A stretch of 64,000 bases of DNA, taken from NCBI GenBank assembly GCA_032718475.1, contig JAUCBJ010001598.1, forward strand, positions 67,731-131,730, given 5' to 3'. This DNA is from Nemertoderma westbladi (lineage: Eukaryota > Animalia > Xenacoelomorpha). Positions 1 through 38,524 of this stretch are shown one piece after another. Under the pieces are notes generated by a model. It searched no databases, was not told where the DNA came from, and saw nothing but the letters and a program-made list of their open reading frames with translations. The position numbers and the translations under genes are program-made. Within the stretch, counting starts at the first letter, position 1. Each line of letters begins with the position of its first letter.

Positions 1-3000
1 TTGAGTCTGTACTATTCTACGCTATCATTTGTTTCCCAGGCACCCCGTTGAGTCTGTACTATTCTACGTTAGCATTTGTTTCCCAGGCACCCCGTTGAGT
101 CTGTACTATTCTACGCTATCATTTGTTTCCCAGGCACCCCGTTGAGTCTGTACTATTCTACGCTATCATTTGTTTCCCAGGCACCCCGTTGAGTCTGTAC
201 TATTCTACGTTAGCATTTGTTTCCCAGGCACCCCGTTGAGTCTGTACTATTCTACGCTATCATTTGTTTCCCAGGCACCCCGTTGAGTCTGTACTATTCT
301 ACGCTATCATTTGTTTCCCAGGTACCCCGTTGAGTCTGTACTATTCTACGCTATCATTTGTTTCCCAGACACCCCGTTGAGTCTGTACTATTCTACGCTA
401 TCATTTGTTTCCCAGGCACCCCGTTGAGTCTGTACTATTCTACGCTATCATTTGTTTCCCAGGCACCCCGTTGAGTCTACAATTCTACGCTATCATTTGT
501 TTCCCAGGCACCCCGTTGAGTCTGCCTGTACTATTCTACGCTATCATTTGTTTCCCAGGCACCCTGTTGAGTCTGTACTATTCTACGCTATCATTTGTTT
601 CCCAGGCACCCCGTTGAGTCTGTCTGTACTATTCTACGCTATCATTTGTTTCCCAGGCACCCCGTTGAGTCTGTACTATTCTACGCTATCATTTGTTTCC
701 CAGGCACCCCGTTGAGTCTACAATTCTACGCTATCATTTGTTTCCCAGGCACCCCGTTGAGTCTGTACTATTCTACATTATCATTTGTTTCCCAGGCACC
801 CCGTTGAGTCTACTATTCTACATTATCATTTGTTTCCCAGGCACCCCGTTGAGTCTGTACTATTCTACGCTATCATTTGTTTCCCAGGCACCCCGTTGAG
901 TCTGTACTATTCTACGCTATCCTTTGTTTCCCAGACACCCCGTTGAGTCTGTACTATTCTACGCTATCATTTGTTTCCCATGCACCCCGTTGAGTCTACA
1001 ATTATACGCTATCATTTGTTTCCCAGGCACCCTGTTGAGTCTGTCTGTACTATTCTACGCTATCATTTGTTTCCCAGACACCCCGTTGAGTCTGTACTAT
1101 TCTACGCTATCCTTTGTTTCCCAGACACCCCGTTGAGTCTGTACTATTCTACGCTATCATTTGTTTCCCATGCACCCCGTTGAGTCTACTATTCTACGCT
1201 ATCATTTGTTTCCCAGGCACTCCGTTGAGTCTGTACTATTCTACGCTGTCATTTGTTTCCCAGGCACGCCGTTGAGTCTGTACTATTCTACGCTATCATT
1301 TGTTTCCCAGGCACCCCGTTGAGTCTGTACTATTCTACGCTATCATTTGTTTCCCAGGCACCCTGTTGAGTCTGTCTGTACTATTCTACGCTACCATTTG
1401 TTTCCCAGGCACCCCGTTGAGTCTACAATTCTACGCTATCATTTGTTTCCCAGGCACCCCGTTGAGTCTGTACTATTCTACATTATCATTTGTTTCCCAG
1501 GCACCCCGTTGAGTCTACTATTCTACATTATCATTTGTTTCCCAGGCACTCCGTTGAGTCTGTCTGTACTATTCTACGCTATCATTTGTTTCCCAGGCAC
1601 CCTGTTGAGTCTGTCTGTACTATTCTACGCTACCATTTGTTTCCCAGGCACCCCGTTGAGTCTACAATTCTACGCTATCATTTGTTTCCCAGGCACCCCG
1701 TTGAGTCTGTACTATTCTACATTATCATTTGTTTCCCAGGCACCCCGTTGAGTCTACTATTCTACGCTAGCATTTGTTTCCCAGACACCCCGTTGAGTCT
1801 GTACTATTCTACGCTATCCTTTGTTTCCCAGACACCCCGTTGAGTCTGTACTATTCTACGCTATCATTTGTTTCCCATGCACCCCGTTGAGTCTACTATT
1901 CTACGCTATCATTTGTTTCCCAGGCACTCCGTTGAGTCTGTACTATTCTACGCTGTCATTTGTTTCCCAGGCACGCCGTTGAGTCTGTACTATTCTACGC
2001 TATCATTTGTTTCCCAGGCACCCTGTTGAGTCTGTCTGTACTATTCTACGCTACCATTTGTTTCCCAGGTACCCCGTTGAGTCTGTACTATTCTACGCTA
2101 TCATTTGTTTCCCAGGCACTCCGTTGCGTCTACTATTCTACGCTATCATTTGTTTCCCAGGCACCCTGTTGAGTCTGTACTATTCTACGCTATCATTTGT
2201 TTCCCAGACACCCCGTTGAGTCTGTACTATTCTACGCTATCATTTGTTTCCCATGCACCCCGTTGAGTCTACTATTCTACGCTATCATTTGTTTCCCATG
2301 CACCCCGTTGAGTCTACTATTCTACGCTATCATTTGTTTCCCAGACACCCCGTTGAGTCTGTACTATTATACGCTATCATTTGTTTCCCAGGCACCCCGT
2401 TGAGTCTGTCTGTACTATTCTACGCTATCATTTGTTTCCCAGGCACCCTGTTGAGTCTGTCTGTACTATTCTACGTTATCATTTTTTTCCCAGGCACCCT
2501 GTTGAGTCTGTCTGTACTATTCTACGCTACCATTTGTTTCCCAGGCACCCCGTTGAGTCTGTACTATTCTACGCTATCATTTGTTTCCCAGGCACCCCGT
2601 TGAGTCTACAATTCTACGCTATCATTTGTTTCCCAGGCACCCCGTTGAGTCTGTACTATTCTACATTATCATTTGTTTCCCAGGCACCCCGTTGAGTCTG
2701 TACTATTCTACGCTATCATTTGTTTCCCAGGCACCCTGTTGAGTCTGTACTATTCTACGTTATCATTTTTTTCCCAGGCACCCTGTTGAGTCTGTCTGTA
2801 CTATTCTACGCTACCATTTGTTTCCCAGGCACCCCGTTGAGTCTGTACTATTCTACGCTATCATTTGTTTCCCAGGCACCCCGTTGAGTCTACAATTCTA
2901 CGCTATCATTTGTTTCCCAGGCACCCCGTTGAGTCTGTACTATTCTACATTATCATTTGTTTCCCAGGCACCCCGTTGAGTCTGTACTATTCTACGCTAC

Positions 3001-6000
3001 CATTTGTTTCCCAGGCACCCCGTTGAGTCTGTACTATTCTACGCTATCATTTGTTTCCCAGGCACCCCGTTGAGTCTACAATTCTACGCTATCATTTGTT
3101 TCCCAGGCACCCTGTTGAGTCTGTACTATTCTACGTTATCATTTTTTTCCCAGGCACCCTGTTGAGTCTGTCTGTACTATTCTACGCTACCATTTGTTTC
3201 CCAGGCACCCCGTTGAGTCTGTACTATTCTACGCTATCATTTGTTTCCCAGGCACCCCGTTGAGTCTGTACTATTCTACGCTATCATTTGTTTCCCAGGC
3301 ACCCCGTTGAGTCTGTACTATTCTACGCTATCATTTGTTTCCCAGGCACCCCGTTGAGTCTGTACTATTCTACGCTATCATTTGTTTCCCAGGTACCCCG
3401 TTGAGTCTGTACTATTCTACGTTAGCATTTGTTTCCCAGACACCCCGTTGAGTCTGTACTATTCTACGCTATCATTTGTTTCCCAGGCACCTCGTTAAGT
3501 CTGTACTATTATACGCTATCATTTGTTTCCCAGGCACCCTGTTGAGTCTGTCGGTACTATTCTACGCTATCATTTGTTTCCCAGGCACCCCGTTGAGTCT
3601 GTACTATTCTACGCTATCATTTGTTTCCCAGGCACCCCGTTGAGTCTGTACTATTCTACGCTATCATTTGTTTCCCAGGCACCCCGTTGAGTCTGTACTA
3701 TTCTACGCTATCATTTGTTTCCCAGGCACCCCGTTGAGTCTGTACTATTCTACGCTATCATTTGTTTCCCATGCACCCCGTTGAGTCTACTATTCTACGC
3801 TATCCTTTGTTTCCCAGGCACCCCGTTGAGTCTACTATTCTACGCTATCATTTGTTTCCCATGCACCCCGTTGAGTCTACTATTCTACGCTATCATTTGT
3901 TTCCCAGACACCCCGTTGAGTCTGTACTATTCTACGCTATCATTTGTTTCCCAGGCACCCCGTTGAGTCTGTCTGTACTATTCTACGCTATCATTTGTTT
4001 CCCAGGCACCTCGTTGAGTCTGTCTGTACTATTCTACGCTATATCATTTGTTTCCCAGGCACCCTGTTGAGTCTACTATTCTACGCTAGCATTTGTTTCC
4101 CAGGCACCCCGTTGAGTCTGTACTATTCTACGTTATCATTTTTTTCCCAGGCACCCTGTTGAGTCTGTCTGTACTATTCTACGCTACCATTTGTTTCCCA
4201 GGCACCCCGTTGAGTCTGTACTATTCTACGCTATCATTTGTTTCCCAGGCACCCCGTTGAGTCTGTACTATTCTACGTTAGCATTTGTTTCCCAGACACC
4301 CCGTTGATTCTGTACTATTCTACGCTATCATTTGTTTCCCAGGCACCCTGTTGAGTCTACTATTCTACGCTATCATTTGTTTCCCATGCACCCCGTTGAG
4401 TCTACTATTCTACGCTATCATTTGTTTCCCAGGCACTCCGTTGAGTCTGTACTATTCTACGCTATCATTTGTTTCCCATGCACCCCGTTGAGTCTACTAT
4501 TCTACGCTATCCTTTGTTTCCCAGACACCCCGTTGAGTCTGTACTATTCTACGCTATCATTTGTTTCCCATGCACCCCGTTGAGTCTACTATTCTACGCT
4601 ATCATTTGTTTCCCAGACACCCCGTTAAGTCTGTACTATTATACGCTATCATTTGTTTCCCAGGCACCCTGTGGAGTCTGTCGGTACTATTCTACGCTAT
4701 CATTTGTTTCCCAGGCACCCCGTTGAGTCTACTATTCTACATTATCATTTGTTTCCCAGGCACCCCGTTGAGTCTGTACTATTCTACGCTATCCTTTGTT
4801 TCCCAGACACCCCGTTGAGTCTGTACTATTCTACGCTATCATTTGTTTCCCATGCACCCCGTTGAGTCTACTATTCTACGCTATCATTTGTTTCCCAGGC
4901 ACTCCGTTGAGTCTGTACTATTCTACGCTATCATTTGTTTCCCATGCACCCCGTTGAGTCTACTATTCTACGCTATCCTTTGTTTCCCAGACACCCCGTT
5001 GAGTCTGTACTATTCTACGCTATCATTTGTTTCCCATGCACCCCGTTGAGTCTACTATTCTACGCTATCATTTGTTTCCCAGGCACTCCGTTGAGTCTGT
5101 ACTATTCTACGCTATCATTTGTTTCCCATGCACCCCGTTGAGTCTACTATTCTACGCTATCCTTTGTTTCCCAGACACCCCGTTGAGTCTGTACTATTCT
5201 ACGCTATCATTTGTTTCCCATGCACCCCGTTGAGTCTACTATTCTACGCTATCATTTGTTTCCCAGGCACTCCGTTGAGTCTGTACTATTCTACGCTATC
5301 ATTTGTTTCCCAGGCACCCCGTTGAGTCTGTACTATTCTACGTTAGCATTTGTTTCCCAGGCACCCCGTTGAGTCTGTACTATTCTACGCTATCATTTGT
5401 TTCCCAGACACCCCGTTGAGTCTGTACTATTCTACGCTGTCATTTGTTTCCCAAGCACCCCGTTGAGTCTACAATTCTACGCTATCATTTGTTTCCCAGA
5501 CACCCCGTTGAGTCTACAATTCTACGCTATCATTTGTTTCCCAGGCACCCCGTTGAGTCTGTCTGTACTATTCTACGCTATCATTTGTTTCCCAGGCACC
5601 CCGTTGAGTCTGTACTATTCTACGCTATCACTTGTTTCCCAGGCACCCCGTTGAGTCTGTACTATTCTACGCTATCATTTGTTTCCCAGGCACCCCGTTG
5701 AGTCTGTACTATTCTACGCTATCATTTGTTTCCCAGGCACCCCGTTGAGTCTGTACTATTCTACGCTATCATTTGTTTCCCAGGCACCCCGTTGAGTCTG
5801 TACTATTCTACGTTAGCATTTGTTTCCCAGGCACCCCGTTGAGTCTGTACTATTCTACGCTATCATTTGTTTCCCAGGCACCCCGTTGAGTCTGTACTAT
5901 TCTACGCTATCATTTGTTTCCCAGGCACCCCGTTGAGTCTGTACTATTCTACGTTAGCATTTGTTTCCCAGGCACCCCGTTGAGTCTGTACTATTCTACG

Positions 6001-9000
6001 CTATCATTTGTTTCCCAGGCACCCCGTTGAGTCTGTACTATTCTACGCTATCATTTGTTTCCCAGGCACCCCGTTGAGTCTGTACTATTCTACGTTAGCA
6101 TTTGTTTCCCAGGCACCCCGTTGAGTCTGTACTATTCTACGCTATCATTTGTTTCCCAGGCACCCCGTTGAGTCTGTACTATTCTACGCTATCATTTGTT
6201 TCCCAGGTACCCCGTTGAGTCTGTACTATTCTACGCTATCATTTGTTTCCCAGACACCCCGTTGAGTCTGTACTATTCTACGCTATCATTTGTTTCCCAG
6301 GCACCCCGTTGAGTCTGTACTATTCTACGCTATCATTTGTTTCCCAGGCACCCCGTTGAGTCTACAATTCTACGCTATCATTTGTTTCCCAGGCACCCCG
6401 TTGAGTCTGCCTGTACTATTCTACGCTATCATTTGTTTCCCAGGCACCCTGTTGAGTCTGTACTATTCTACGCTATCATTTGTTTCCCAGGCACCCCGTT
6501 GAGTCTGTCTGTACTATTCTACGCTATCATTTGTTTCCCAGGCACCCCGTTGAGTCTGTACTATTCTACGCTATCATTTGTTTCCCAGGCACCCCGTTGA
6601 GTCTACAATTCTACGCTATCATTTGTTTCCCAGGCACCCCGTTGAGTCTGTACTATTCTACATTATCATTTGTTTCCCAGGCACCCCGTTGAGTCTACTA
6701 TTCTACATTATCATTTGTTTCCCAGGCACCCCGTTGAGTCTGTACTATTCTACGCTATCATTTGTTTCCCAGGCACCCCGTTGAGTCTGTACTATTCTAC
6801 GCTATCCTTTGTTTCCCAGACACCCCGTTGAGTCTGTACTATTCTACGCTATCATTTGTTTCCCATGCACCCCGTTGAGTCTACAATTATACGCTATCAT
6901 TTGTTTCCCAGGCACCCTGTTGAGTCTGTCTGTACTATTCTACGCTATCATTTGTTTCCCAGACACCCCGTTGAGTCTGTACTATTCTACGCTATCCTTT
7001 GTTTCCCAGACACCCCGTTGAGTCTGTACTATTCTACGCTATCATTTGTTTCCCATGCACCCCGTTGAGTCTACTATTCTACGCTATCATTTGTTTCCCA
7101 GGCACTCCGTTGAGTCTGTACTATTCTACGCTGTCATTTGTTTCCCAGGCACGCCGTTGAGTCTGTACTATTCTACGCTATCATTTGTTTCCCAGGCACC
7201 CCGTTGAGTCTGTACTATTCTACGCTATCATTTGTTTCCCAGGCACCCTGTTGAGTCTGTCTGTACTATTCTACGCTACCATTTGTTTCCCAGGCACCCC
7301 GTTGAGTCTACAATTCTACGCTATCATTTGTTTCCCAGGCACCCCGTTGAGTCTGTACTATTCTACATTATCATTTGTTTCCCAGGCACCCCGTTGAGTC
7401 TACTATTCTACATTATCATTTGTTTCCCAGGCACTCCGTTGAGTCTGTCTGTACTATTCTACGCTATCATTTGTTTCCCAGGCACCCTGTTGAGTCTGTC
7501 TGTACTATTCTACGCTACCATTTGTTTCCCAGGCACCCCGTTGAGTCTACAATTCTACGCTATCATTTGTTTCCCAGGCACCCCGTTGAGTCTGTACTAT
7601 TCTACATTATCATTTGTTTCCCAGGCACCCCGTTGAGTCTACTATTCTACGCTAGCATTTGTTTCCCAGACACCCCGTTGAGTCTGTACTATTCTACGCT
7701 ATCCTTTGTTTCCCAGACACCCCGTTGAGTCTGTACTATTCTACGCTATCATTTGTTTCCCATGCACCCCGTTGAGTCTACTATTCTACGCTATCATTTG
7801 TTTCCCAGGCACTCCGTTGAGTCTGTACTATTCTACGCTGTCATTTGTTTCCCAGGCACGCCGTTGAGTCTGTACTATTCTACGCTATCATTTGTTTCCC
7901 AGGCACCCTGTTGAGTCTGTCTGTACTATTCTACGCTACCATTTGTTTCCCAGGTACCCCGTTGAGTCTGTACTATTCTACGCTATCATTTGTTTCCCAG
8001 GCACTCCGTTGCGTCTACTATTCTACGCTATCATTTGTTTCCCAGGCACCCTGTTGAGTCTGTACTATTCTACGCTATCATTTGTTTCCCAGACACCCCG
8101 TTGAGTCTGTACTATTCTACGCTATCATTTGTTTCCCATGCACCCCGTTGAGTCTACTATTCTACGCTATCATTTGTTTCCCATGCACCCCGTTGAGTCT
8201 ACTATTCTACGCTATCATTTGTTTCCCAGACACCCCGTTGAGTCTGTACTATTATACGCTATCATTTGTTTCCCAGGCACCCCGTTGAGTCTGTCTGTAC
8301 TATTCTACGCTATCATTTGTTTCCCAGGCACCCTGTTGAGTCTGTCTGTACTATTCTACGTTATCATTTTTTTCCCAGGCACCCTGTTGAGTCTGTCTGT
8401 ACTATTCTACGCTACCATTTGTTTCCCAGGCACCCCGTTGAGTCTGTACTATTCTACGCTATCATTTGTTTCCCAGGCACCCCGTTGAGTCTACAATTCT
8501 ACGCTATCATTTGTTTCCCAGGCACCCCGTTGAGTCTGTACTATTCTACATTATCATTTGTTTCCCAGGCACCCCGTTGAGTCTGTACTATTCTACGCTA
8601 TCATTTGTTTCCCAGGCACCCTGTTGAGTCTGTACTATTCTACGTTATCATTTTTTTCCCAGGCACCCTGTTGAGTCTGTCTGTACTATTCTACGCTACC
8701 ATTTGTTTCCCAGGCACCCCGTTGAGTCTGTACTATTCTACGCTATCATTTGTTTCCCAGGCACCCCGTTGAGTCTACAATTCTACGCTATCATTTGTTT
8801 CCCAGGCACCCCGTTGAGTCTGTACTATTCTACATTATCATTTGTTTCCCAGGCACCCCGTTGAGTCTGTACTATTCTACGCTACCATTTGTTTCCCAGG
8901 CACCCCGTTGAGTCTGTACTATTCTACGCTATCATTTGTTTCCCAGGCACCCCGTTGAGTCTACAATTCTACGCTATCATTTGTTTCCCAGGCACCCTGT

Positions 9001-12000
9001 TGAGTCTGTACTATTCTACGTTATCATTTTTTTCCCAGGCACCCTGTTGAGTCTGTCTGTACTATTCTACGCTACCATTTGTTTCCCAGGCACCCCGTTG
9101 AGTCTGTACTATTCTACGCTATCATTTGTTTCCCAGGCACCCCGTTGAGTCTGTACTATTCTACGCTATCATTTGTTTCCCAGGCACCCCGTTGAGTCTG
9201 TACTATTCTACGCTATCATTTGTTTCCCAGGCACCCCGTTGAGTCTGTACTATTCTACGCTATCATTTGTTTCCCAGGTACCCCGTTGAGTCTGTACTAT
9301 TCTACGTTAGCATTTGTTTCCCAGACACCCCGTTGAGTCTGTACTATTCTACGCTATCATTTGTTTCCCAGGCACCTCGTTAAGTCTGTACTATTATACG
9401 CTATCATTTGTTTCCCAGGCACCCTGTTGAGTCTGTCGGTACTATTCTACGCTATCATTTGTTTCCCAGGCACCCCGTTGAGTCTGTACTATTCTACGCT
9501 ATCATTTGTTTCCCAGGCACCCCGTTGAGTCTGTACTATTCTACGCTATCATTTGTTTCCCAGGCACCCCGTTGAGTCTGTACTATTCTACGCTATCATT
9601 TGTTTCCCAGGCACCCCGTTGAGTCTGTACTATTCTACGCTATCATTTGTTTCCCATGCACCCCGTTGAGTCTACTATTCTACGCTATCCTTTGTTTCCC
9701 AGGCACCCCGTTGAGTCTACTATTCTACGCTATCATTTGTTTCCCATGCACCCCGTTGAGTCTACTATTCTACGCTATCATTTGTTTCCCAGACACCCCG
9801 TTGAGTCTGTACTATTCTACGCTATCATTTGTTTCCCAGGCACCCCGTTGAGTCTGTCTGTACTATTCTACGCTATCATTTGTTTCCCAGGCACCTCGTT
9901 GAGTCTGTCTGTACTATTCTACGCTATATCATTTGTTTCCCAGGCACCCTGTTGAGTCTACTATTCTACGCTAGCATTTGTTTCCCAGGCACCCCGTTGA
10001 GTCTGTACTATTCTACGTTATCATTTTTTTCCCAGGCACCCTGTTGAGTCTGTCTGTACTATTCTACGCTACCATTTGTTTCCCAGGCACCCCGTTGAGT
10101 CTGTACTATTCTACGCTATCATTTGTTTCCCAGGCACCCCGTTGAGTCTGTACTATTCTACGTTAGCATTTGTTTCCCAGACACCCCGTTGATTCTGTAC
10201 TATTCTACGCTATCATTTGTTTCCCAGGCACCCTGTTGAGTCTACTATTCTACGCTATCATTTGTTTCCCAGGCACGCCGTTGAGTCTACTATTCTACGC
10301 TATCATTTGTTTCCCAGGCACTCCGTTGAGTCTGTACTATTCTACGCTATCATTTGTTTCCCAGGCACCCCGTTGAGTCTACTATTCTACGCTATCATTT
10401 GTTTCCCAGGCACTCCGTTGAGTCTGTACTATTCTACGCTATCATTTGTTTCCCATGCACCCCGTTGAGTCTACTATTCTACGCTATCCTTTGTTTCCCA
10501 GACACCCCGTTGAGTCTGTACTATTCTACGCTATCATTTGTTTCCCATGCACCCCGTTGAGTCTACTATTCTACGCTATCATTTGTTTCCCAGACACCCC
10601 GTTAAGTCTGTACTATTATACGCTATCATTTGTTTCCCAGGCACCCTGTGGAGTCTGTCGGTACTATTCTACGCTATCATTTGTTTCCCAGGCACCCCGT
10701 TGAGTCTACTATTCTACATTATCATTTGTTTCCCAGGCACCCCGTTGAGTCTGTACTATTCTACGCTATCCTTTGTTTCCCAGACACCCCGTTGAGTCTG
10801 TACTATTCTACGCTATCATTTGTTTCCCATGCACCCCGTTGAGTCTACTATTCTACGCTATCATTTGTTTCCCAGGCACTCCGTTGAGTCTGTACTATTC
10901 TACGCTATCATTTGTTTCCCATGCACCCCGTTGAGTCTACTATTCTACGCTATCCTTTGTTTCCCAGACACCCCGTTGAGTCTGTACTATTCTACGCTAT
11001 CATTTGTTTCCCATGCACCCCGTTGAGTCTACTATTCTACGCTATCATTTGTTTCCCAGGCACTCCGTTGAGTCTGTACTATTCTACGCTATCATTTGTT
11101 TCCCATGCACCCCGTTGAGTCTACTATTCTACGCTATCCTTTGTTTCCCAGACACCCCGTTGAGTCTGTACTATTCTACGCTATCATTTGTTTCCCATGC
11201 ACCCCGTTGAGTCTACTATTCTACGCTATCATTTGTTTCCCAGGCACTCCGTTGAGTCTGTACTATTCTACGCTGTCATTTGTTTCCCAAGCACCCCGTT
11301 GAGTCTACTATTCTACATTATCATTTGTTTCCCAGGCACGCCGTTGAGTCTGTACTATTCTACGCTATCATTTGTTTCCCAGGCACCCCGTTGAGTCTAC
11401 TATTCTACGTTATCATTTGTTTCCCAGGCACCCCGTTGAGTCTGTCTGTACTATTCTACGCTATCATTTGTTTCCCAGGCACTCCGTTGAGTCTGTACTA
11501 TTCTACGCTGTCATTTGTTTCCCAGGCACCCTGTTGAGTCTGTCTGTACTATTCTACGCTATCATTTGTTTCCCAGGTACCCCGTTGAGTCTGTACTATT
11601 CTACGCTATCATTTGTTTCCCAGGCACTCCGTTGCGTCTACTATTCTACGCTATCATTTGTTTCCCAGGCACTCCGTTGAGTCGGTACTATTCTACGCTA
11701 TCATTTGTTTCCCAGGCACCCCGTTGAGTCTGTACTATTCTACGCTATCATTTGTTTCCCAGGCACCCCGTTGAGTCTGTACTATTCTACGCTATCATTT
11801 GTTTCCCAGGCACCCTGTTGAGTCTGTCTGTACTATTCTACGCTACCATTTGTTTCCCAGGTACCCCGTTGAGTCTGTACTATTCTACGCTATCATTTGT
11901 TTCCCAGGCACCCCGTTGAGTCTACTATTCTACTCTACCATTTGTTTCCCAGGCACCCCGTTGCGTCTACTATTCTACGCTATCATTTGTTTCCCAGGCA

Positions 12001-21000: not shown

Positions 21001-24000
21001 CCTATCATTTGTTTCCCAGGCACTCCGTTGCGTCTACTATTCTACGCTATCATTTGTTTCCCAGGCACCCCGTTGAGTCTGTACTATTCTACGCTATCAT
21101 TTGTTTCCCAGGCACCCTGTTGAGTCTACTATTCTACGCTATCATTTGTTTCCCAGGCACCCCGTTGAGTCTGTACTATTCTACGCTATCATTTGTTTCC
21201 CATGCACCCCGTTGAGTCTACTATTCTACGCTATCATTTGTTTCCCATGCACCCCGTTGAGTCTACAATTCTACGCTATCATTTGTTTCCCATGCACCCC
21301 GTTGAGTCTACTATTCTACGCTATCATTTGTTTCCCAGGCACCCCGTTGAGTCTGTACTATTCTACGCTATCATTTGTTTCCCATGCACCCCGTTGAGTC
21401 TACAATTCTACGCTATCATTTGTTTCCCATGCACCCCGTTGAGTCTACTATTCTACGCTATCATTTGTTTCCCATGCACCCCGTTGAGTCTACTATTCTA
21501 CGCTATCATTTGTTTCCCATGCACCCCGTTGAGTCTACAATTCTACGCTATCATTTGTTTCCCATGCACCCCGTTGAGTCTACTATTCTACGCTATCATT
21601 TGTTTCCCAGGCACCCCGTTGAGTCTGTACTATTCTACGCTATCATTTGTTTCCCAGGCACCCCGTTGAGTCTACTATTCTACGCTATCATTTGTTTCCC
21701 AGGCACCCCGTTGAGTCTGTACTATTCTACGCTATCATTTGTTTCCCAGGCACCCCGTTGCGTCTACTATTCTACGCTATCATTTGTTTCCCAGGCACCC
21801 CGTTGAGTCTGTACTATTCTACGCTATCATTTGTTTCCCAGGCACCCCGTTGCGTCTACTATTCTACGCTATCATTTGTTTCCCAGGCACCCCGTTGAGT
21901 CTGTACTATTCTACGCTATCATTTGTTTCCCAGGCACCCCGTTGAGTCTACTATTCTACGCTATCATTTGTTTCCCAGGCACCCCGTTGAGTCTGTACTA
22001 TTCTACGCTATCATTTGTTTCCCAGGCACCCCGTTGCGTCTACTATTCTACGCTATCATTTGTTTCCCAGGTACCCCGTTGAGTCTACTATTCTACGCTA
22101 GCATTTGTTTCCCAGGCACCCCGTTGAGTCTACTATTCTACTCTACCATTTGTTTCCCAGGCACCCCGTTGAGTCTACTATTCTACGCTATCATTTGTTT
22201 CCCATGCACCCCGTTGAGTCTACTATTCTACGCTAGCATTTGTTTCCCAGGCACCCCGTTGAGTCTACTATTCTACTCTACCATTTGTTTCCCAGGCACC
22301 CCGTTGAGTCTGTACTATTCTACGCTAGCATTTGTTTCCCAGGCACCCCGTTGAGTCTACTATTCTACTCTACCATTTGTTTCTCAGGCACCCCGTTGAG
22401 TCTGTACTATTCTACGTTAGCATTTGTTTCCCAGACACCCCGTTGAGTCTGTACTATTCTACGCTAGCATTTGTTTCCCAGGCACCCCGTTGAGTCTACT
22501 ATTCTACTCTACCATTTGTTTCTCAGGCACCCCGTTGAGTCTGTACTATTCTACGTTAGCATTTGTTTCCCAGGCACCCCGTTGCGTCTACTATTCTACG
22601 CTATCATTTGTTTCCCAGGCACCCCGTTGAGTCTGTACTATTCTACGCTATCATTTGTTTCCCAGGCACCCCGTTGCGTCTACTATTCTACGCTATCATT
22701 TGTTTCCCAGGCACCCCGTTGAGTCTGTACTATTATACGCTATCATTTGTTTCCCAGGCACTCCGTTGCGTCTACTATTCTACGCTATCATTTGTTTCTC
22801 AGGCACCCCGTTGAGTCTGTCTGTACTATTCTACGCTACCATTTGTTTCCCAGGTACCCCGTTGAGTCTGTACTATTCTACGCTATCATTTGTTTCCCAG
22901 GCACGCCGTTGAGTCTGTACTATTCTACGCTATCATTTGTTTCCCAGGTACCCCGTTGAGTCTACTATTCTACGCTATCATTTGTTTCCCAGGCACCCCG
23001 TTGAGTCTGTACTATTCTACGCTATCATTTGTTTCCCATGTACCCCGTTGAGTCTACTATTCTACATTATCATTTGTTTCCCAGACACCCCGTTGAGTCT
23101 GTACTATTCTACGCTATCATTTGTTTCCCAGGCACCTCGTTAAGTCTGTACTATTATACGCTATCATTTGTTTCCCAGGCACCCTGTTGAGTCTGTCGGT
23201 ACTATTCTACGCTATCATTTGTTTCCCAGGCACCCCGTTGAGTCTGTACTATTCTACGCTATCATTTGTTTCCCAGGCACCCTGTGGAGTCTGTCGGTAC
23301 TATTCTACGCTAGCATTTGTTTCCCAGGCACCCCGTTGAGTCTGTACTATTCTACGCTAGCATTTGTTTCCCAGGCACCCCGTTGAGTCTACTATTCTAC
23401 GCTATCATTTGTTTCCCATGCACCCCGTTGAGTCTACTATTCTACGCTAGCATTTGTTTCCCAGGCACCCCGTTGAGTCTGTACTATTCTACGCTAGCAT
23501 TTGTTTCCCAGGCACCCCGTTGAGTCTACTATTCTACGCTATCATTTGTTTCCCATGCACCCCGTTGAGTCTACTATTCTACGCTAGCATTTGTTTCCCA
23601 GGCACCCCGTTGAGTCTGTACTATTCTACGCTAGCATTTGTTTCCCAGGCACCCCGTTGAGTCTGTACTATTTTACGCTAGCATTTGTTTCCCAGGCACC
23701 CCGTTGAGTCTGTACTATTCTACGCTATCATTTGTTTCCCAGGCACCCTGTGGAGTCTGTCGGTACTATTCTACGCTAGCATTTGTTTCCCAGGCACCCC
23801 GTTGAGTCTGTACTATTCTACGCTAGCATTTGTTTCCCAGGCACCCCGTTGAGTCTACTATTCTACGCTATCATTTGTTTCCCATGCACCCCGTTGAGTC
23901 TACTATTCTACGCTAGCATTTGTTTCCCAGGCACCCCGTTGAGTCTGTACTATTCTACGCTATCATTTGTTTCCCAGGTACCCCGTTGAGTCTGTACTAT

Positions 24001-27000
24001 TCTACGCTAGCATTTGTTTCCCAGGCACCCCGTTGAGTCTGTACTATTCTACGCTAGCATTTGTTTCCCAGGCACCTCGTTGAGTCTGTACTATTATACG
24101 CTAGCATTTGTTTCTCAGGCACCCTGTTGAGTCTACTATTCTACGCTATAATTTGTTTCCCAGGCACCCCGTTGAGTCTACTATTCTACGCTATCATTTG
24201 TTTCCCAGGCACGCCGTTGAGTCTGTACTATTCTACGCTATCATTTGTTTCCCATGCACTCCGTTGAGTCTACTATTCTACGCTATCATTTGTTTCCCAG
24301 GCACCCCGTTGAGTCTGTACTATTCTACGCTAGCATTTGTTTCCCAGACACCCCGTTGAGTCTGTACTATTCTACGCTAGCATTTGTTTCCCAGGCACCT
24401 CGTTGAGTCTGTACTATTATACGCTATCATTTGTTTCCCAGGCACTCCGTTGCGTCTACTATTCTACGCTATCATTTGTTTCCCAGGCACCCCGTTGAGT
24501 CTGTACTATTCTACGCTAGCATTTGTTTCCCAGGCACCTCGTTGAGTCTGTACTATTATACGCTATCATTTGTTTCCCAGGCACTCCGTTGCGTCTACTA
24601 TTCTACGCTATCATTTGTTTCCCAGGCACCCCGTTGAGTCTGTACTATTCTACGCTATCATTTGTTTCTCAGGCACCCCGTTGAGTCTACTATTCTACGC
24701 TATCATTTGTTTCCCAGGCACCCCGTTGAGTCTGTACTATTCTACGCTAGCATTTGTTTCCCAGGCACCTCGTTGAGTCTGTACTATTATACGCTATCAT
24801 TTGTTTCCCAGGCACTCCGTTGCGTCTACTATTCTACGCTATCATTTGTTTCCCAGGCACCCCGTTGAGTCTGTACTATTCTACGCTATCATTTGTTTCT
24901 CAGGCACCCCGTTGAGTCTACTATTCTACGCTATCATTTGTTTCCCAGGCACCCCGTTGAGTCTGTACTATTCTACGCTAGCATTTGTTTCCCAGGCACC
25001 TCGTTGAGTCTGTACTATTATACGCTATCATTTGTTTCCCAGGCACTCCGTTGCGTCTACTATTCTACGCTATCATTTGTTTCTCAGGCACCCCGTTGAG
25101 TCTACTATTCTACGCTATCATTTGTTTCCCAGGCACCCCGTTGAGTCTGTACTATTCTACGCTATCATTTGTTTCTCAGGCACCCCGTTGAGTCTGTACT
25201 ATTCTACGCTATCATTTGTTTCCCAGGCACTCCGTTGCGTCTACTATTCTACGCTAGCATTTGTTTCCCAGGCACCTCGTTGAGTCTGTACTATTATACG
25301 CTACCATTTGTTTCCCAGGTACCCCGTTGAGTCTGTACTATTCTACGCTATCATTTGTTTCCCAGGCACTCCGTTGCGTCTACTATTCTACGCTAGCATT
25401 TGTTTCCCAGGCACCTCGTTGAGTCTGTACTATTATACGCTACCATTTGTTTCCCAGGTACCCCGTTGAGTCTGTACTATTCTACGCTATCATTTGTTTC
25501 TCAGGCACCCCGTTGAGTCTGTACTATTCTACGCTATCATTTGTTTCCCAGGCACTCCGTTGCGTCTACTATTCTACGCTAGCATTTGTTTCCCAGGCAC
25601 CTCGTTGAGTCTGTACTATTATACGCTATCATTTGTTTCCCAGGCACCCCGTTGAGTCTGTACTATTCTACGCTAGCATTTGTTTCCCAGGCACCTCGTT
25701 GAGTCTGTACTATTATACGCTATCATTTGTTTCCCAGGCACTCCGTTGCGTCTACTATTCTACGCTATCATTTGTTTCCCAGGCACCCCGTTGAGTCTGT
25801 ACTATTCTACGCTATCATTTGTTTCTCAGGCACCCCGTTGAGTCTACTATTCTACGCTATCATTTGTTTCCCAGGCACCCCGTTGAGTCTGTACTATTCT
25901 ACGCTATCATTTGTTTCTCAGGCACCCCGTTGAGTCTGTACTATTCTACGCTATCATTTGTTTCCCAGGCACCCCGTTGAGTCTACTATTATACGCTATC
26001 ATTTGTTTCCCAGGCACTCCGTTGCGTCTACTATTCTACGCTATCATTTGTTTCCCAGGCACCCCGTTGAGTCTGTACTATTCTACGCTAGCATTTGTTT
26101 CCCAGGTACCCCGTTGAGTCTGTACTATTCTACGCTAGCATTTGTTTCCCAGGCACCCCGTTGAGTCTGTACTATTCTACGCTAGCATTTGTTTCCCAGG
26201 TACCCCGTTGAGTCTGTACTATTCTACGCTATCATTTGTTTCCCAGGCACCCCGTTGAGTCTGTACTATTCTACGCTATCATTTGTTTCCCAGGCACTCC
26301 GTTGAGTCTGTACTATTCTACGCTATCATTTGTTTCCCAGGCACTCCGTTGAGTCTGTACTATTCTACGCTACCATTTGTTTCCCAGGTACCCCGTTGAG
26401 TCTGTACTATTCTACGCTATCATTTGTTTCCCAGGCACCTCGTTGAGTCTGTACTATTCTACGCTATCATTTGTTTCCCAGGCACTCCGTTGAGTCTGTA
26501 CTATTCTACGCTACCATTTGTTTCCCAGGTACCCCGTTGAGTCTGTACTATTCTACGCTACCATTTGTTTCCCAGGTACCCCGTTGAGTCTGTACTATTC
26601 TACGCTATCATTTGTTTCCCAGGCACCTCGTTGAGTCTGTACTATTCTACGCTATCATTTGTTTCCCAGGCACTCCGTTGAGTCTGTACTATTCTACGCT
26701 ACCATTTGTTTCCCAGGTACCCCGTTGAGTCTGTACTATTCTACGCTATCATTTGTTTCCCAGGCACTCCGTTGAGTCTGTACTATTCTACGCTACCATT
26801 TGTTTCCCAGGTACCCCGTTGAGTCTGTACTATTCTACGCTATCATTTGTTTCCCAGGCACCTCGTTGAGTCTGTACTATTCTACGCTATCATTTGTTTC
26901 CCAGGCACTCCGTTGAGTCTGTACTATTCTACGCTACCATTTGTTTCCCAGGTACCCCGTTGAGTCTGTACTATTCTACGCTATCATTTGTTTCCCAGAC

Positions 27001-30000
27001 ACCCCGTTGAGTCTGTACTATTCTACGCTATCATTTGTTTCCCATGCACCCCGTTGAGTCTACTATTATACGCTATCATTTGTTTCCCAGGCACTCCGTT
27101 GCGTCTACTATTCTACGCTATCATTTGTTTCCCAGGCACCCCGTTGAGTCTGTACTATTCTACGCTATCATTTGTTTCCCAGGCACCCCGTTGAGTCTGT
27201 ACTATTCTACGCTATCATTTGTTTCCCAGGCACCCTGTTGAGTCTGTACTATTCTACGCTAGCATTTGTTTCCCAGGCACTCCGTTGAGTCTGTACTATT
27301 CTACGCTATCATTTGTTTCCCAGGCACCCCGTTGAGTCTGTACTATTCTACGCTAGCATTTGTTTCCCATGCACCCCGTTGAGTCTACTATTATACGCTA
27401 TCATTTGTTTCCCAGGCACTCCGTTGCGTCTACTATTCTACGCTATCATTTGTTTCCCAGGCACCCCGTTGAGTCTGTACTATTCTACGCTACCATTTGT
27501 TTCCCAGGTACCCCGTTGAGTCTGTACTATTCTACGCTACCATTTGTTTCCCAGGCACCCCGTTGAGTCTGTACTATTCTACGCTATCATTTGTTTCCCA
27601 GGTACCCCGTTGAGTCTGTACTATTCTACGCTAGCATTTGTTTCCCATGCACCCCGTTGCGTCTACTATTCTACGCTATCATTTGTTTCCCAGGCACCCC
27701 GTTGAGTCTGTACTATTCTACGCTATCATTTGTTTCCCAGGCACTCCGTTGCGTCTACTATTCTACGCTATCATTTGTTTCCCAGGTACCCCGTTGAGTC
27801 TGTACTATTCTACGCTACCATTTGTTTCCCAGGTACCCCGTTGAGTCTGTACTATTCTACGCTACCATTTGTTTCCCAGGCACCCCGTTGAGTCTGTACT
27901 ATTCTACGCTATCATTTGTTTCCCAGGTACCCCGTTGAGTCTGTACTATTCTACGCTAGCATTTGTTTCCCATGCACCCCGTTGAGTCTGTACTATTCTA
28001 CGCTATCATTTGTTTCCCATGCACCCCGTTGAGTCTGTACTATTCTACGCTATCATTTGTTTCCCAGGCACGCCGTTGAGTCTGTACTATTCTACGCTAC
28101 CATTTGTTTCCCAGGTACCCCGTTGAGTCTGTACTATTCTACGCTATCATTTGTTTCCCAGGTACCCCGTTGAGTCTGTACTATTCTACGCTAGCATTTG
28201 TTTCCCATGCACCCCGTTGAGTCTACTATTATACGCTATCATTTGTTTCCCAGGCACTCCGTTGCGTCTACTATTCTACGCTATCATTTGTTTCCCAGGC
28301 ACCCCGTTGAGTCTGTACTATTCTACGCTAGCATTTGTTTCCCAGGCACCCCGTTGAGTCTGTACTATTCTACGCTATCATTTGTTTCCCAGGCACTCCG
28401 TTGAGTCTACTATTCTACGCTATCATTTGTTTCCCAGGCACCCCGTTGAGTCTGTACTATTCTACGCTAGCATTTGTTTCCCAGGCACCCCGTTGAGTCT
28501 GTACTATTCTACGCTATCATTTGTTTCCCAGGCACTCCGTTGAGTCTGTACTATTCTACGCTATCATTTGTTTCCCAGGCACCCCGTTGAGTCTGTACTA
28601 TTCTACGCTATCATTTGTTTCCCAGGCACTCCGTTGAGTCTGTACTATTCTACATTATCATTTGTTTCCCAGACACCCCGTTGAGTCTGTACTATTCTAC
28701 GCTAGCATTTGTTTCCCAGGCACCCCGTTGAGTCTGTACTATTCTACGCTATCATTTGTTTCCCATGCACTCCGTTGAGTCTACTATTCTACGCTATCAT
28801 TTGTTTCCCAGGCACCCCGTTGAGTCTACTATTCTACGCTATCATTTGTTTCCCAGACACCCCGTTGAGTCTGTACTATTCTACGCTAGCATTTGTTTCT
28901 CAGGCACCCCGTTGAGTCTGTACTATTCTACGCTATCATTTGTTTCCCAGGCACTCCGTTGCGTCTACTATTCTACATTATCATTTGTTTCCCAGGTACC
29001 CCGTTGAGTCTGTACTATTCTACGCTAGCATTTGTTTCCCAGACACCCCGTTGAGTCTGTACTATTCTACGCTATCATTTGTTTCCCAGGCACCCCGTTG
29101 AGTCTGTACTATTCTACGCTATCATTTGTTTCCCAGGCACCCCGTTGAGTCTGTACTATTCTACGCTATCATTTGTTTCCCAGGCACCCCGTTGAGTCTG
29201 TACTATTCTACGCTAGCATTTGTTTCCCAGGCACCCCGTTGAGTCTGTACTATTCTACGCTATCATTTGTTTCCCAGGCACCCCGTTGAGTCTGTACTAT
29301 TCTACGCTAGCATTTGTTTCCCAGGCACCCCGTTGAGTCTGTACTATTCTACGCTATCATTTGTTTCCCATGCACCCCGTTGAGTCTACTATTCTACGCT
29401 ATCATTTGTTTCCCATGCACCCCGTTGAGTCTACAATTCTACGCTATCATTTGTTTCCCATGCACCCCGTTGAGTCTACTATTCTACGCTATCATTTGTT
29501 TCCCAGGCACCCCGTTGAGTCTGTACTATTCTACGCTATCATTTGTTTCCCAGGCACCCCGTTGAGTCTGTACTATTCTACGCTATCATTTGTTTCCCAG
29601 GCACCCCGTTGAGTCTACAATTCTACGCTATCATTTGTTTCCCATGCACCCCGTTGAGTCTACTATTCTACGCTATCATTTGTTTCCCAGGCACCCCGTT
29701 GAGTCTGTACTATTCTACGCTATCATTTGTTTCCCAGGCACCCCGTTGAGTCTGTACTATTCTACGCTATCATTTGTTTCCCAGGCACCCCGTTGAGTCT
29801 GTACTATTCTACGCTAGCATTTGTTTCCCAGGCACCCTGTTGAGTCTACTATTCTACGCTATCATTTGTTTCCCAGGCACCCCGTTGAGTCTGTACTATT
29901 CTACGCTATCATTTGTTTCCCAGGCACCCCGTTGAGTCTGTACTATTCTACGCTATCATTTGTTTCCCAGGCACCCCGTTGCGTCTGTACTATTCTACGC

Positions 30001-33000
30001 TATCATTTGTTTCCCAGGCACCCCGTTGCGTCTACTATTCTACGCTATCATTTGTTTCCCAGGCACCCCGTTGAGTCTGTACTATTCTACGCTATCATTT
30101 GTTTCCCAGGCACCCCGTTGCGTCTACTATTCTACGCTATCATTTGTTTCCCAGGCACCCCGTTGAGTCTGTACTATTCTACGCTATCATTTGTTTCCCA
30201 GGCACCCCGTTGAGTCTGTACTATTCTACGCTATATCATTTGTTTCCCAGGCACCCCGTTGAGTCTGTACTATTCTACGCTATCATTTGTTTCCCAGGCA
30301 CCCCGTTGAGTCTGTACTATTCTACGCTATCATTTGTTTCCCAGGCACTCCGTTGAGTCTGTACTATTCTACGCTACCATTTGTTTCCCAGGCACCCCGT
30401 TGAGTCTGTACTATTCTACGCTATCATTTGTTTCCCAGGTACCCCGTTGAGTCTGTACTATTCTACGCTAGCATTTGTTTCCCAGGCACCCCGTTGAGTC
30501 TACTATTCTACGTTATCATTTGTTTCCCAGGCACTCCGTTGCGTCTACTATTCTACGCTATCATTTGTTTCCCAGGCACCCCGTTGAGTCTGTACTATTC
30601 TACGCTAGCATTTGTTTCCCAGACACCCCGTTGAGTCTGTACTATTCTACGCTATCATTTGTTTCCCAGGCACCTCGTTGAGTCTGTACTATTCTACGCT
30701 ATCATTTGATTCCCAGGCACCCCGTTGAGTCTGTCTGTACTATTCTACGCTATCATTTGTTTCCCAGGCACCCCGTTGAGTCTACTATTCTACGCTATCA
30801 TTTGTTTCCCAGGCACCCCGTTGAGTCTGTACTATTCTACGCTATCATTTGTTTCCCATGCACCCCGTTGAGTCTACTATTCTACGCTATCATTTGTTTC
30901 CCATGCACCCCGTTGAGTCTACTATTCTACGCTATCATTTGTTTCCCAGGCACCCCGTTGAGTCTGTACTATTCTACGCTATCATTTGTTTCCCATGTAC
31001 CCCGTTGAGTCTACTATTCTACGCTATCATTTGTTTCCCAGGCACCCCGTTGAGTCTGTACTATTCTACGCTATCATTTGTTTCCCAGGCACCCCGTTGC
31101 GTCTACTATTCTACGCTATCATTTGTTTCCCAGGCACCTCGTTGAGTCTGTACTATTCTACGCTATCATTTGTTTCCCAGGCACCCCGTTGCGTCTACTA
31201 TTCTATGCTATCATTTGTTTCCCAGGCACCCCGTTGAGTCTACTATTCTACGCTATCATTTGTTTCCCAGGCACGCCGTTGAGTCTGTACTATTCTACGC
31301 TATCATTTGTTTCCCAGGCACCCCGTTGCGTCTACTATTCTATGCTATCATTTGTTTCCCAGGTACCCCGTTGAGTCTGTACTATTCTACGCTAGCATTT
31401 GTTTCCCAGGCACCCCGTTGAGTCTGTACTATTCTACGCTAGCATTTGTTTCCCAGGCACCCCGTTGAGTCTGTACTATTCTACGCTAGCATTTGTTTCC
31501 CAGGCACCCCGTTGAGTCTGTACTATTCTACGCTATCATTTGTTTCCCAGGCACCCCGTTGAGTCTACTATTCTACTCTACCATTTGTTTCCCAGGCACC
31601 CCGTTGAGTCTACTATTCTACTCTACCATTTGTTTCCCAGGCACCCCGTTGAGTCTGTACTATTCTACGCTATCATTTGTTTCTCAGGCACCCCGTTGAG
31701 TCTGTACTATTCTACGCTATCATTTGTTTCCCAGGCACCCCGTTGAGTCTGTACTATTCTACGCTATCATTTGTTTCCCAGGCACGCCGTTGAGTCTGTA
31801 CTATTCTACATTATCATTTGTTTCCCAGGCACTCCGTTGCGTCTGTACTATTCTACGCTATCATTTGTTTCTCAGGCACCCCGTTGAGTCTGTACTATTC
31901 TACGCTAGCATTTGTTTCCCAGGCACCCCGTTGAGTCTGTACTATTCTACGTTAGCATTTGTTTCCCAGACACCCCGTTGCGTCTACTATTCTACGCTAT
32001 CATTTGTTTCTCAGGCACCCCGTTGAGTCTGTACTATTCTACGCTATCATTTGTTTCCCAGGCACCCCGTTGAGTCTGTCTGTACTATTCTACGCTATCA
32101 TTTGTTTCCCAGGCACGCCGTTGAGTCTGTACTATTCTACATTATCATTTGTTTCCCAGGCACCCCGTTGAGTCTGTACTATTCTACGCTAGCATTTGTT
32201 TCCCAGGCACCCCGTTGAGTCTGTACTATTCTACGCTAGCATTTGTTTCCCAGGCACCCCGTTGAGTCTGTACTATTCTACGCTATCATTTGTTTCCCAG
32301 GCACCCCGTTGAGTCTACTATTCTACTCTACCATTTGTTTCCCAGGCACCCCGTTGCGTCTACTATTCTACGCTATCATTTGTTTCCCAGGCACCTCGTT
32401 GAGTCTGTACTATTCTACGCTATCATTTGTTTCCCAGACACGCCGTTGAGTCTGTACTATTCTACGCTATCATTTGTTTCCCAGGCACCTCGTTGAGTCT
32501 GTACTATTCTACGCTATCATTTGTTTCCCAGACACGCCGTTGAGTCTGTACTATTCTACGCTATCATTTTTTTCCCAGGCACCCTGTTGAGTCTGTACTA
32601 TTCTACGTTAGCATTTGTTTCCCAGACACCCCGTTGAGTCTGTACTATTCTACGCTATCATTTGTTTCCCAGGCACCTCGTTAAGTCTGTACTATTATAC
32701 GCTATCATTTGTTTCCCAGGCACCCCGTTGAGTCTGTCTGTACTATTCTACGCTATCATTTGTTTCCCAGGCACGCCGTTGAGTCTGTACTATTCTACAT
32801 TATCATTTGTTTCCCAGGCACTCCGTTGCGTCTACTATTCTACGCTATCATTTGTTTCCCAGGTACCCCGTTGAGTCTGTACTATTCTACGCTATCATTT
32901 GTTTCCCAGGCACCCCGTTGAGTCTGTACTATTCTACGCTATCATTTGTTTCCCAGGCACCCCGTTGAGTCTGTACTATTCTACGCTATCATTTGTTTCC

Positions 33001-33827
33001 CATGCACCCCGTTGAGTCTACAATTCTACGCTATCATTTGTTTCCCAGGCACCCCGTTGAGTCTACTATTCTACGCTATCATTTGTTTCCCAGGCACGCC
33101 GTTGAGTCTGTACTATTCTACCCTATCATTTGTTTCCCAGGCACTCCGTTGCGTCTACTATTCTACGCTATCATTTGTTTCCCAGGTACCCCGTTGAGTC
33201 TGTACTATTCTACGCTATCATTTGTTTCCCAGGCACCCCGTTGAGTCTGTACTATTCTACGCTATCATTTGTTTCCCATGCACCCCGTTGAGTCTGTCTG
33301 TACTATTCTACGATATCATTTGTTTCCCAGGCACCCCGTTGAGTCTGTACTATTCTACGCTATCATTTGTTTCCCAGGCACGCCGTTGAGTCTGTACTAT
33401 TCTACGCTATCATTTGTTTCCCAGTCACCCCGTTGAGTCTGTACTATTCTACGCTATCATTTGTTTCCCAGACACCCCGTTGAGTCTGTACTATTCTACG
33501 CTATCATTTGTTTCCCAGGCACCCCGTTGAGTCTACTATTCTACGCTATCATTTGTTTCCCAGGCACCCCGTTGAGTCTGTACTATTCTACGCTACCATT
33601 TGTTTCCCAGGCACTCCGTTGCGTCTACTATTCTACGCTATCATTTGTTTCCCAGGCACCCCGTTGAGTCTGTACTATTCTACGCTATCATTTGTTTCCC
33701 AGGCACCCCGTTGAGTCTGTACTATTCTACGCTATCATTTGTTTCCCAGGCACCCTGTTGAGTCTACTATTCTACGCTAGCATTTGTTTCCCAGGCACCC
33801 CGTTGAGTCTGTACTATTCTACGCTAT
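1..33827 (+). repeat. Intronic satellite, 47-bp unit CATTTGTTTCCCAG|GCACCCCGTTGAGTCTGTACTATTCTACGCTAT (45- and 51-bp variants), derived from the acceptor junction of the downstream beta-catenin exon; truncated by the window start
   Basis: Continuous tandem array; roughly 720 copies estimated from length/unit. The last unit (33781-33827) runs directly into unique coding sequence; its AG at 33793-33794 is the exon acceptor. Confidence 0.97.
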
Positions 33828-33996
33828 TATAACTCTACACAACCTGCTTCTGCACCTCGATGGCTCCAAGATGGCAGTCCGACAGGCTGGAGGCCTACAG
33901 AAGATGGTCGCTTTACTGAGTCGTAACAACGTTAAGTTTCTCGCTATAACCACGGATTGCCTCCAAATCCTGGCCTATGGGAATCAGGATAGCAAG
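33795..33996 (+). CDS. CTNNB1: Beta-catenin/armadillo exon A: (G)[67 protein letters not shown]
   Basis: Matches beta-catenin [41 protein letters not shown]...AYGNQESK. Bounded by tttcccAG and AAG|GTgggt. 202 bp, phase 2 to 0, the same size as human CTNNB1 exon 6 as I recall it. Confidence 0.96.
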
Positions 33997-36765: not shown

Positions 36766-36859
36766 TAGCCTATTCTATGGACAGCCATGGCTAAACGTTA
36801 AACTGTATGTACCTTACAGCACTTACTATATGGTCCTTCCTCCCTACTTTGTTACTTTA

Positions 36860-37915
36860 CACCTTACTATTGTATTAGCTAATTTACCAGACTAGCTTCC
36901 CCACCCTACTATGGTATTGGCTAGTTTACCAGAATAGTTTCCCCGCCCTCATATTGTATTAGCTAATTTACCAGACTAGTTTCCCGCCCTCCTATTGTAT
37001 TAGCTAATTTACCAGACTAGTTTCCCGCCCTCCTATTGTATTAGCTAGTTTACCAGACTAGTTTCCCCGCCCTCCTATTGTATTAGCTAGTTTAACAGAC
37101 TAGTTTATCCGCCTTACTATGGTATTGGCTAGTTTAACAGACTAGACCAGACTAGTTTCCTCGCCCTCCTATTCTACTGGCTAGTTTCACAGACTAGTTT
37201 CCCCGCCCTACTAATTGTATTAGCTAGTTTAACAGACTAGTTTATCCGCCTTACTATTGTATTAGTTAGTTTACCAGACTAGTTTCCACGCCCTACTATT
37301 GTATTGGCTAGTTTACCAGACTAGTTTCCCCTCCCTACTATTGTATTAGCTAGTTTAACAGACTAGTTTATCCGCCTTACTATTGTATTGGCTAGTTTAC
37401 CAGACTAGTTTCCACGCCCTACTATTGTATTGGCTAGTTTACCAGACTAATGTCCCCGCCCTACTAATTGTATTAGCTAGTTTACCAGACTAGTTTCCTC
37501 GCTCTCCTATTCTACTGGCTAGTTTGCCAGACTTTCTTCGCCCTACTATTGTATTGGTTAGTTTACCTGAATGAATAGTTTCCCCGCCCTACTATTGTAT
37601 TGGTTAGTTTACCTAAATAGTTTCCCCGCCCTACTATTGTATTAGTTAATTTACCAGACTAGTTTCCCCGCCCTACTATTGTATTGGTTAGTTTACCAGA
37701 CTAGTTTCTCCACCTTACTACTGTATTATATAATTTACCAGACTAGTTTCCACGCTAGTTTCCCCGCCCTACTATTCTACAGGCTAGTTTACCAGACTAG
37801 TTTCCCTACCCCCCCACCCCCATCCTACTATTTTATTGGCTAGTTTAATTTCCCTTGTATTAACTAGTTTACTCGACTATCGTCTACCTCCTATTGTATT
37901 GTATTGGTTAGTAGT
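36860..37915 (+). repeat. Degenerate ~43-bp minisatellite CTATTGTATTGGCTAGTTTACCAGACTAGTTTCCCCGCCCTA upstream of the exon B1 acceptor
   Basis: About two dozen diverged tandem copies that decay towards 37915. Confidence 0.88.
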
Positions 37916-37946: not shown

Positions 37947-38091
37947 CTGATTCTATTGGCTAGTGGCGGTCCGCAGGAACTTTTGCGTATAATGCAGAGC
38001 TACTCGTACGAGAAGCTACTCTGGACTACGTCCCGAGCACTCAAAGTTCTCAGTGTTTGTCCCAATAATAAACCGGCAATTGTCACAGCAG
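37947..38091 (+). CDS. CTNNB1: Beta-catenin exon B1 (canonical): [48 protein letters not shown](G)
   Basis: Matches [49 protein letters not shown]. ctacAG acceptor, G|GTtagt donor, 145 bp, phase 0 to 1. Confidence 0.96.
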
Positions 38092-38379: not shown

Positions 38380-38524
38380 ACTGGGATCTTCCAATGCGGT
38401 GGTATTGAGTATCTTGTTGACATCGTTCGTGGGGCCAAGTACGAGAAACTTCTGTGGACATCGAGTCGTGTTCTTAAAGTACTCAGTGTCGACGGTGACT
38501 GTAAAGCAGCCATCGTTCGATTAG
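38380..38524 (+). CDS. CTNNB1: Duplicated alternative exon B2 (putative mutually exclusive with B1): [48 protein letters not shown](G)
   Basis: Hand-translated; this frame is not in the ORF track. Same 145-bp length and phases as B1, open frame, pyrimidine tract plus ttctAG acceptor, AG|GTaata donor, and a conserved YEKLLWTxSRxLKVLSV core. Confidence 0.88.

Follow-up and report, generated by a model that had tools for sequence, protein, structure and literature searches.

The window analysed here is a stretch of 64,000 nucleotides from the xenacoelomorph Nemertoderma westbladi (contig JAUCBJ010001598.1 of assembly GCA_032718475.1, positions 67,731 to 131,730 of the forward strand), and it contains a beta-catenin gene from an internal exon to the stop codon. 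The 5' exons, which in a beta-catenin would include the N-terminal CK1/GSK3 degron, lie outside the window. The exons and arrays of the gene are all on the forward strand. Nine exons were modelled; every intron is GT-AG, and the frame is open for 547 codons with no stop or frameshift. The predicted protein is 57–63% identical to animal beta-catenins (the best 25 of 120 proteins), and its Armadillo-repeat core is closest to beta-catenin. The first of the nine exons (33795..33996; 202 nt, phase 2 to phase 0) ends at GT, and its 67 residues match beta-catenin structures (PDB entries of catenin beta-1) with an E-value of 4e-35, plakoglobin scoring lower. Everything to the left of this exon is a tandem array, hereafter array 1 (1..33794), consisting of 719 upstream copies of a 47-bp unit that joins the end of the intron to the start of the exon; 652 of the copies have AG. 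A comparable array, array 2 (48309..59735), with 278 upstream copies of a 41-bp unit spread over 11.4 kb and AG in 254 of them, precedes the last exon.

A first-pass annotation had described the left part of the window as an array of at least 33.8 kb with about 720 decoy acceptors, each unit being 14 nt of intron end followed by 33 nt that encode conserved beta-catenin sequence, with the true exon starting at 33795 and its acceptor 202 nt from a donor. The array was recovered by Tandem Repeats Finder (TRF) as a single tract (1–33827, period 47, 721.5 copies, 92% matches). The 14-nt intron end used as an anchor yields 720 anchors, including the real junction as the last. The 33 exonic nucleotides of the unit are the first 33 of the exon and encode conserved beta-catenin residues, and the distance of 202 nt from the real acceptor to the donor holds as well. 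However, not all units are acceptors, as CAG ends 653 of the 720 anchors (652 decoys and the real site) and has been lost in 67.

The 719 units of array 1 are 47 nt (449), 45 nt (192), 51 nt (69), or of other length (9), and represent 116 distinct forms. The most frequent form reproduces the 47 nt of the real junction exactly. Perfect identity to the real junction from −14 to +33 was observed for 161 of the 719 upstream copies, the mean identity of the units to the real-junction unit is 96.3%, and neither identity nor AG retention shows a trend from one end of the array to the other. This high identity, the recurrence of shared variants, and a higher-order repeat with a period of 125 units are the marks of concerted evolution. 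The higher-order duplication (26..11800, the end being approximate) consists of 92 identical units in a row repeated 125 units apart, with starts at 26 and 5911; it could instead be an assembly duplication. The array continues past the left edge of the window, so that its total length and the upstream exon lie outside.

The origin of the array was addressed by comparison with related loci on metagenome contigs (the best 80 of 114, from a scan of 38 of 64 parts). An intron with AG at exactly the same phase-2 position is present in 36 of the 80 loci, representing 26 distinct exon clusters at 90% identity, and the other 44 read through this position as exon. Hence the intron is older than the repeat, and array 1 is a copy of the gene's junction; on this comparison, the phase-2 intron is ancestral. 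The earlier proposal that the satellite was derived from the gene, rather than the intron from the satellite, is thus borne out. The alternative that the intron was gained when a proto-splice site was duplicated in tandem was considered and rejected for two reasons. Firstly, the intron position is not new. Secondly, the only donor-like sequence of the 47-bp unit is also present in the real exon. No array was found at the same junction in 35 of the 36 intron-bearing loci, for which up to 1.5 kb upstream was examined. The remaining locus (L058, positions 506–624), from another animal, carries two copies of a 62-bp segment across this beta-catenin acceptor, duplicated independently, and AG has been lost from the upstream copy.

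Besides array 1, which was all that the first-pass annotation had covered, the gene contains array 2, which provides a better test case, as well as a donor present in three copies and a pair of degenerate arrays close to acceptors. The first 33 nt of the array 2 unit are the end of the intron and contain a branch-like TTAAC, a pyrimidine tract, and CAG; the other 8 nt belong to the last exon. The array has 279 anchors, and the branch-like motif is situated at the natural distance in 214 of the 279 units. On the donor side, an 83-bp unit is present three times (42381..42635) as 98% identical copies of an exon end and its donor; use of the second or third donor (42526, 42609) would lead to a stop. 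A degenerate array of 21 copies of a 42-bp unit (36865..37755) ends about 190 nt before the next acceptor and has a 14/15 match to the start of the next exon, a score reached by 1 of 1000 shuffles; it is likely an old junction-derived array. Another degenerate array, pyrimidine-rich and consisting of 41 copies of a 27-bp unit with 40 branch-point-like motifs (41163..42262), ends 16 nt before an acceptor and resembles the 3' end of the adjacent intron, with no exon sequence (3 of 1000 shuffles, in a comparison that did not overlap the array). In both degenerate arrays, the similarity to the neighboring start of the exon or end of the intron is weak.

Each of the 47-, 41-, and 83-bp arrays aligns to its own junction with a score well beyond those of 200 shuffles and higher than with any of the other 18 junctions. 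Junction-spanning arrays account for three of the five arrays in the gene (a rough post hoc P of 0.0009, or 0.012 without array 1), and five of the nine introns seen carry an array. The large arrays are all pyrimidine-rich on the sense strand (63–71%), and their G+C content is 40–49% compared to 34% in unique intron. It is likely that the process that produced array 1 has affected at least two further junctions of the gene, and repeats seeded at junctions probably characterize this genome, rather than being a device for beta-catenin control.

The observation is confirmed, and the feature falls into a known class. In amphioxus, exon-intron boundaries duplicated in tandem, with units of 10–160 bp, have been described under the name of mirages (PMC3087553), the cases being the globins BflGb6 and BflGb9, Adh3, troponin C, and PGBD5 (PMC3087553, PMC3902484). 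The BflGb6 mirage has 3–6 copies (PMC3087553). In mirages, AG/GT is kept in many units (PMC3087553), and splicing is not disturbed (PMC3087553, PMC3902484). In the window, the 47-, 41-, and 83-bp units fall within this size range and span the host gene's own exon-intron boundaries, and the splice dinucleotide is retained in most units, though not in every one (AG in 652 of 719 upstream copies of array 1 and in 254 of 278 of array 2). The differences are in copy number, with at least 720 and 279 copies (33.8 and 11.4 kb) against 3–6 at BflGb6, in the number of affected borders, several in one gene here, and in homogenization, which the boundary units escape in BflGb6, whereas here the functional unit is the commonest one.

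Human junction minisatellites, e.g., F7 IVS7 (5–9 copies), the 6-16 gene (25 pseudo-sites), CBS (15–20), LMNB2 (10–15), and PDGF (16–18), reiterate a splice site inside the intron while the exon-adjacent copy is used, with leakage from the two nearest pseudo-sites in CBS and 6-16 (PMC1557585). The 83-bp triplet has the same donor-side arrangement. In contrast to array 1, the human minisatellites are located on the donor side and have 30–100 times fewer copies; the decoys reported here are acceptors transcribed before the real site, and hence a first-come rule would choose the wrong one. The Drosophila Y-linked genes kl-3 and kl-5 have megabase introns made of simple satellites that are not derived from splice sites. 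As in the present gene, tandem repeats dominate intron size in an expressed gene there (PMC6508621, PMC11207136), whereas the arrays reported here take up tens of kb and are built from the junction itself. No published case of a satellite-scale junction array was found among the papers listed in the accessible portion of the literature. New here are the scale, as the copy number of at least 720 exceeds the highest among the published cases compared (3–25 copies) about 30-fold, the recurrence within one essential gene, at an internal exon as well as at the terminal one, and an array before the last exon, where decay should not hide errors.

The first-pass annotation had also suggested that splicing to an upstream consensus copy meets a stop in the third unit. 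A premature stop is indeed predicted for all 652 AG-bearing decoys of array 1 if they are spliced in the phase of the exon, and the third unit is only its commonest place (242 of 652); the nearest decoy, at 33750 and in frame, leads to a stop after 9 codons. The view of the array as an extreme test of skipping hundreds of acceptors was overstated, as the array belongs to the known class of mirages, and only 2 of the 652 decoys would give an exon of at most 300 nt and 6 of at most 500 nt. Exon definition is well established, and under it real competition would be limited to this handful of sites. Errors would likely be hidden by nonsense-mediated decay, to which transcripts with premature stops are subject. 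The longer transcription time that had been proposed follows from the array length.

The decoys of array 1 show no coding constraint: 270 of the 719 units are altered in length, and the ten encoded residues are kept in only 271. Selection against decoy AGs was sought over the whole array and near the exon, and none was seen. The G of AG is altered in 66 units, compared to 73, 88, and 70 at the neighboring G/C positions +1, +5, and +30, respectively. In 44 of the 720 units CAG is followed by GT, which could mean that the long intron is removed piecewise, with AG/GT units serving as recursive (ratchet) sites. However, these GTs continue as ACCC and lack the +5 G found in all eight model donors of the gene, so that they do not look like strong donors. 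Moreover, the common internal GT-CTGT of the unit is also present in the real exon, where it is crossed unbroken by the contig described below. Recursive splicing is therefore highly improbable.

A search of sequencing runs with positions 33795–43000 retrieved six runs, all from one organism and none recorded as RNA, of which four (X1–X4) were compared over 33650–36850. In the DNA runs X1 and X2, unique contigs break at 33798, as expected given that the exon's initial 33 bases also occur in the repeat units, and the depth of the repeat bin covering the last units greatly exceeds the single-copy level. Run X1 aligns with the window in three long pieces, and the window's sequence may derive from it; run X2 differs from the window by single-nucleotide polymorphisms and indels, and hence a second sample carries the repeat. 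Depth of short-read contigs is not a copy number, as illustrated by X2 and X3, which come from one sample and differ widely in depth, the repeat figure in X3 being much lower.

Run X4 behaves differently. A single contig of 2031 nt with depth 698 covers 33794–33996 with 0 differences, and its remaining 16 letters 5' of the match and 1812 letters beyond the donor lie off the stretch. The depths of the edge bins, 456.8 and 169.7, are exactly explained by this contig alone, which leaves nothing on 33650–33793, i.e., the last three decoys, or just past the donor. The word share in X4 (0.13) approximates the exonic share (0.114). We infer that X4 is RNA, as it behaves like a transcriptome. If so, the gene is expressed, its dominant message uses the last acceptor of array 1, and the exon start at 33795 is the one that had been proposed, on the evidence of one run. 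No contig using an array 1 decoy was seen in X4, with the reservation that contigs drop rare variants. The same contig bears on whether the repeats sit in a copy of beta-catenin that is dead or silenced, where they would be irrelevant. The protein of the locus forms a long unplaced branch (1.2 changes per column in a quick tree of 45 rows, i.e., the window and 44 chosen proteins), and the 5' exons are out of view; the uninterrupted frame of 547 codons, the canonical splice sites, and a deep contig identical to the exon nevertheless make a dead copy barely credible.

The depth data are also relevant to the possibility of an assembly error at array 1, either over-expansion of a shorter array or the joining of a satellite from elsewhere via the shared 47 nt. 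Consistent with this, the 92 consecutive identical units recur 5.9 kb apart at the left end of the window, no listed record spans both array 1 and unique flank, and the upstream exon is out of view. On the other hand, the array contains 116 distinct unit variants in local mixtures that change along it, and repeat depth, albeit not a measure of copy number, is high in two samples. Furthermore, array 2 has both flanks inside the window and a degenerate first unit, as a real array would have. An assembly artifact is thus very unlikely.

We consider array 1 to be a head-to-tail amplification of beta-catenin's own intron/exon junction and, with a probability of about 0.75, a neutral mirage satellite tolerated by the cell. 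The unit make-up, the shared variants, and the 92-unit run repeated 125 units apart suggest that the array was seeded by a local tandem duplication across the junction and may have been expanded and homogenized by unequal exchange or slippage. Tolerance would follow from the position of the last copy, which alone is continued by the remaining exon and has a donor 202 nt away. The upstream context is alike for the decoys and the real site, so that only the unique exon body and the downstream donor distinguish them. The last acceptor would be chosen by cross-exon pairing of the 3' site with the donor at 33996, far decoys would have no donor close enough to define an exon, and nonsense-mediated decay would remove the occasional transcripts spliced to near decoys.

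Several points weigh against this interpretation. Neutrality is deduced from the variant pattern, and exon definition and decay are brought in as general mechanisms. No YTRAY motif is situated within 50 nt of the real acceptor. Array 1 has its left flank beyond the window, and as none of the listed records covers the array together with the exon, their adjacency rests on the assembly. As to expression, X4 is a single run recorded only as "DNA?", its contigs lose rare forms, and the X4 individual may lack the array.

If the array is neutral, which is most likely, it is a striking example rather than a new mechanism. Its interest lies in the 161 letter-perfect decoys that are transcribed first: correct splicing cannot then come from acceptor strength or a first-come rule and needs downstream information. 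Array 1 tests pairing with the donor, though decay would mask the errors. Array 2 is a cleaner test, as junction-dependent decay should not apply in the last exon. An early stop is predicted for 253 of the 254 AG-bearing copies of array 2, in 200 cases within the first unit, and the one exception, at 59694, would add 14 residues in frame. Use of array 2 decoys would yield a beta-catenin without its last ~43 residues, and such products should survive and be countable, which makes array 2 a test of last-exon definition. The clustering of arrays at junctions also raises the question of why repeats seed there.

The same observations can be read as a sign of function, the arrays being kept to tune beta-catenin output. 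The arrays occupy 79% of positions 1–59879. At elongation rates of 1–4 kb/min, the ~45 kb of extra intron would delay the message by ~10–45 min, and decoys would divert transcripts to decay or, in array 2, to a tail-less protein. Such tuning would fit AG retention in 90% of units in both large arrays, the natural spacing of the branch-like motif in most array 2 units, and the nearly universal early stops in what would be the last exon. However, AG retention is not above that of neighboring G/C sites, X4 has no decoy-using contig for array 1, and junction arrays occur at several borders of the gene. In addition, the intron-bearing related loci have no array within the upstream sequence examined (up to 1.5 kb), apart from the two-copy duplication in one of them. 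Maintenance for tuning is therefore unlikely. A broader proposal, which we also regard as unlikely, is that this animal has a process by which repeats are preferentially seeded at the 3' ends of introns and at exon borders and then amplified on a massive scale, with array length varying and setting beta-catenin timing or dose, array 2 leaking tail-less beta-catenin beyond the reach of junction-dependent decay, and the functional acceptor tied into the homogenization of its array. If this were true, an essential exon would be exposed to frameshift conversion from its own decoys.

The remaining exons of the gene are situated at 37947..38091 (145 nt, hereafter exon A), 39652..39791 (140 nt), 40179..40376 (198 nt), 40724..40969 (246 nt), 42279..42443 (165 nt, ending at the first of the three identical donors), 42737..42893 (157 nt), and 47186..47434 (249 nt). 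The last coding exon (59736..59878), with a predicted acceptor, provides the 47 codons of the C-terminal tail up to the stop codon at 59878, and candidate AATAAA signals are found past it, near 60825 and 60846. For the exon at 40724–40969, the best relatives reach at most 79% identity (among 120 listed of 901 matches). The beta-catenin of the window is fast-evolving overall, and in the exon at 40179–40376 a short stretch around residues GDPNEARAQ resembles a lineage-specific insertion relative to known beta-catenins.

Downstream of exon A, a diverged copy of it, exon B (38380..38524), has the same length of 145 nt, matching phases, AG and GT at its borders, and an open frame. The two exons share 23 of 48 residues; their differences are distributed as 23/15/32 over codon positions 1/2/3, and 14 of the 23 identical residues use a different codon. 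Judged from these features, exon B is a candidate mutually exclusive exon in the armadillo repeats. Two copies of exon A were not found in any of the 74 loci with an exon A match (2-kb flanks examined), no relative of exon B closer than 66–71% was present among 8 matches, and no report of a duplicated beta-catenin exon was found in the accessible portion of the literature searched.

The search of positions 30000–64000 against Rfam at gathering scores gave 0 matches. The intron after the 202-nt exon contains very high-copy interspersed repeats at 34399–34612 and 35362–36645, which have extreme depth in all four runs. Downstream of the gene, arrays of a 15-bp unit, direct and inverted, are located at 62088–62233 and 62840–62993 and resemble the ends of a small inverted-repeat transposon.

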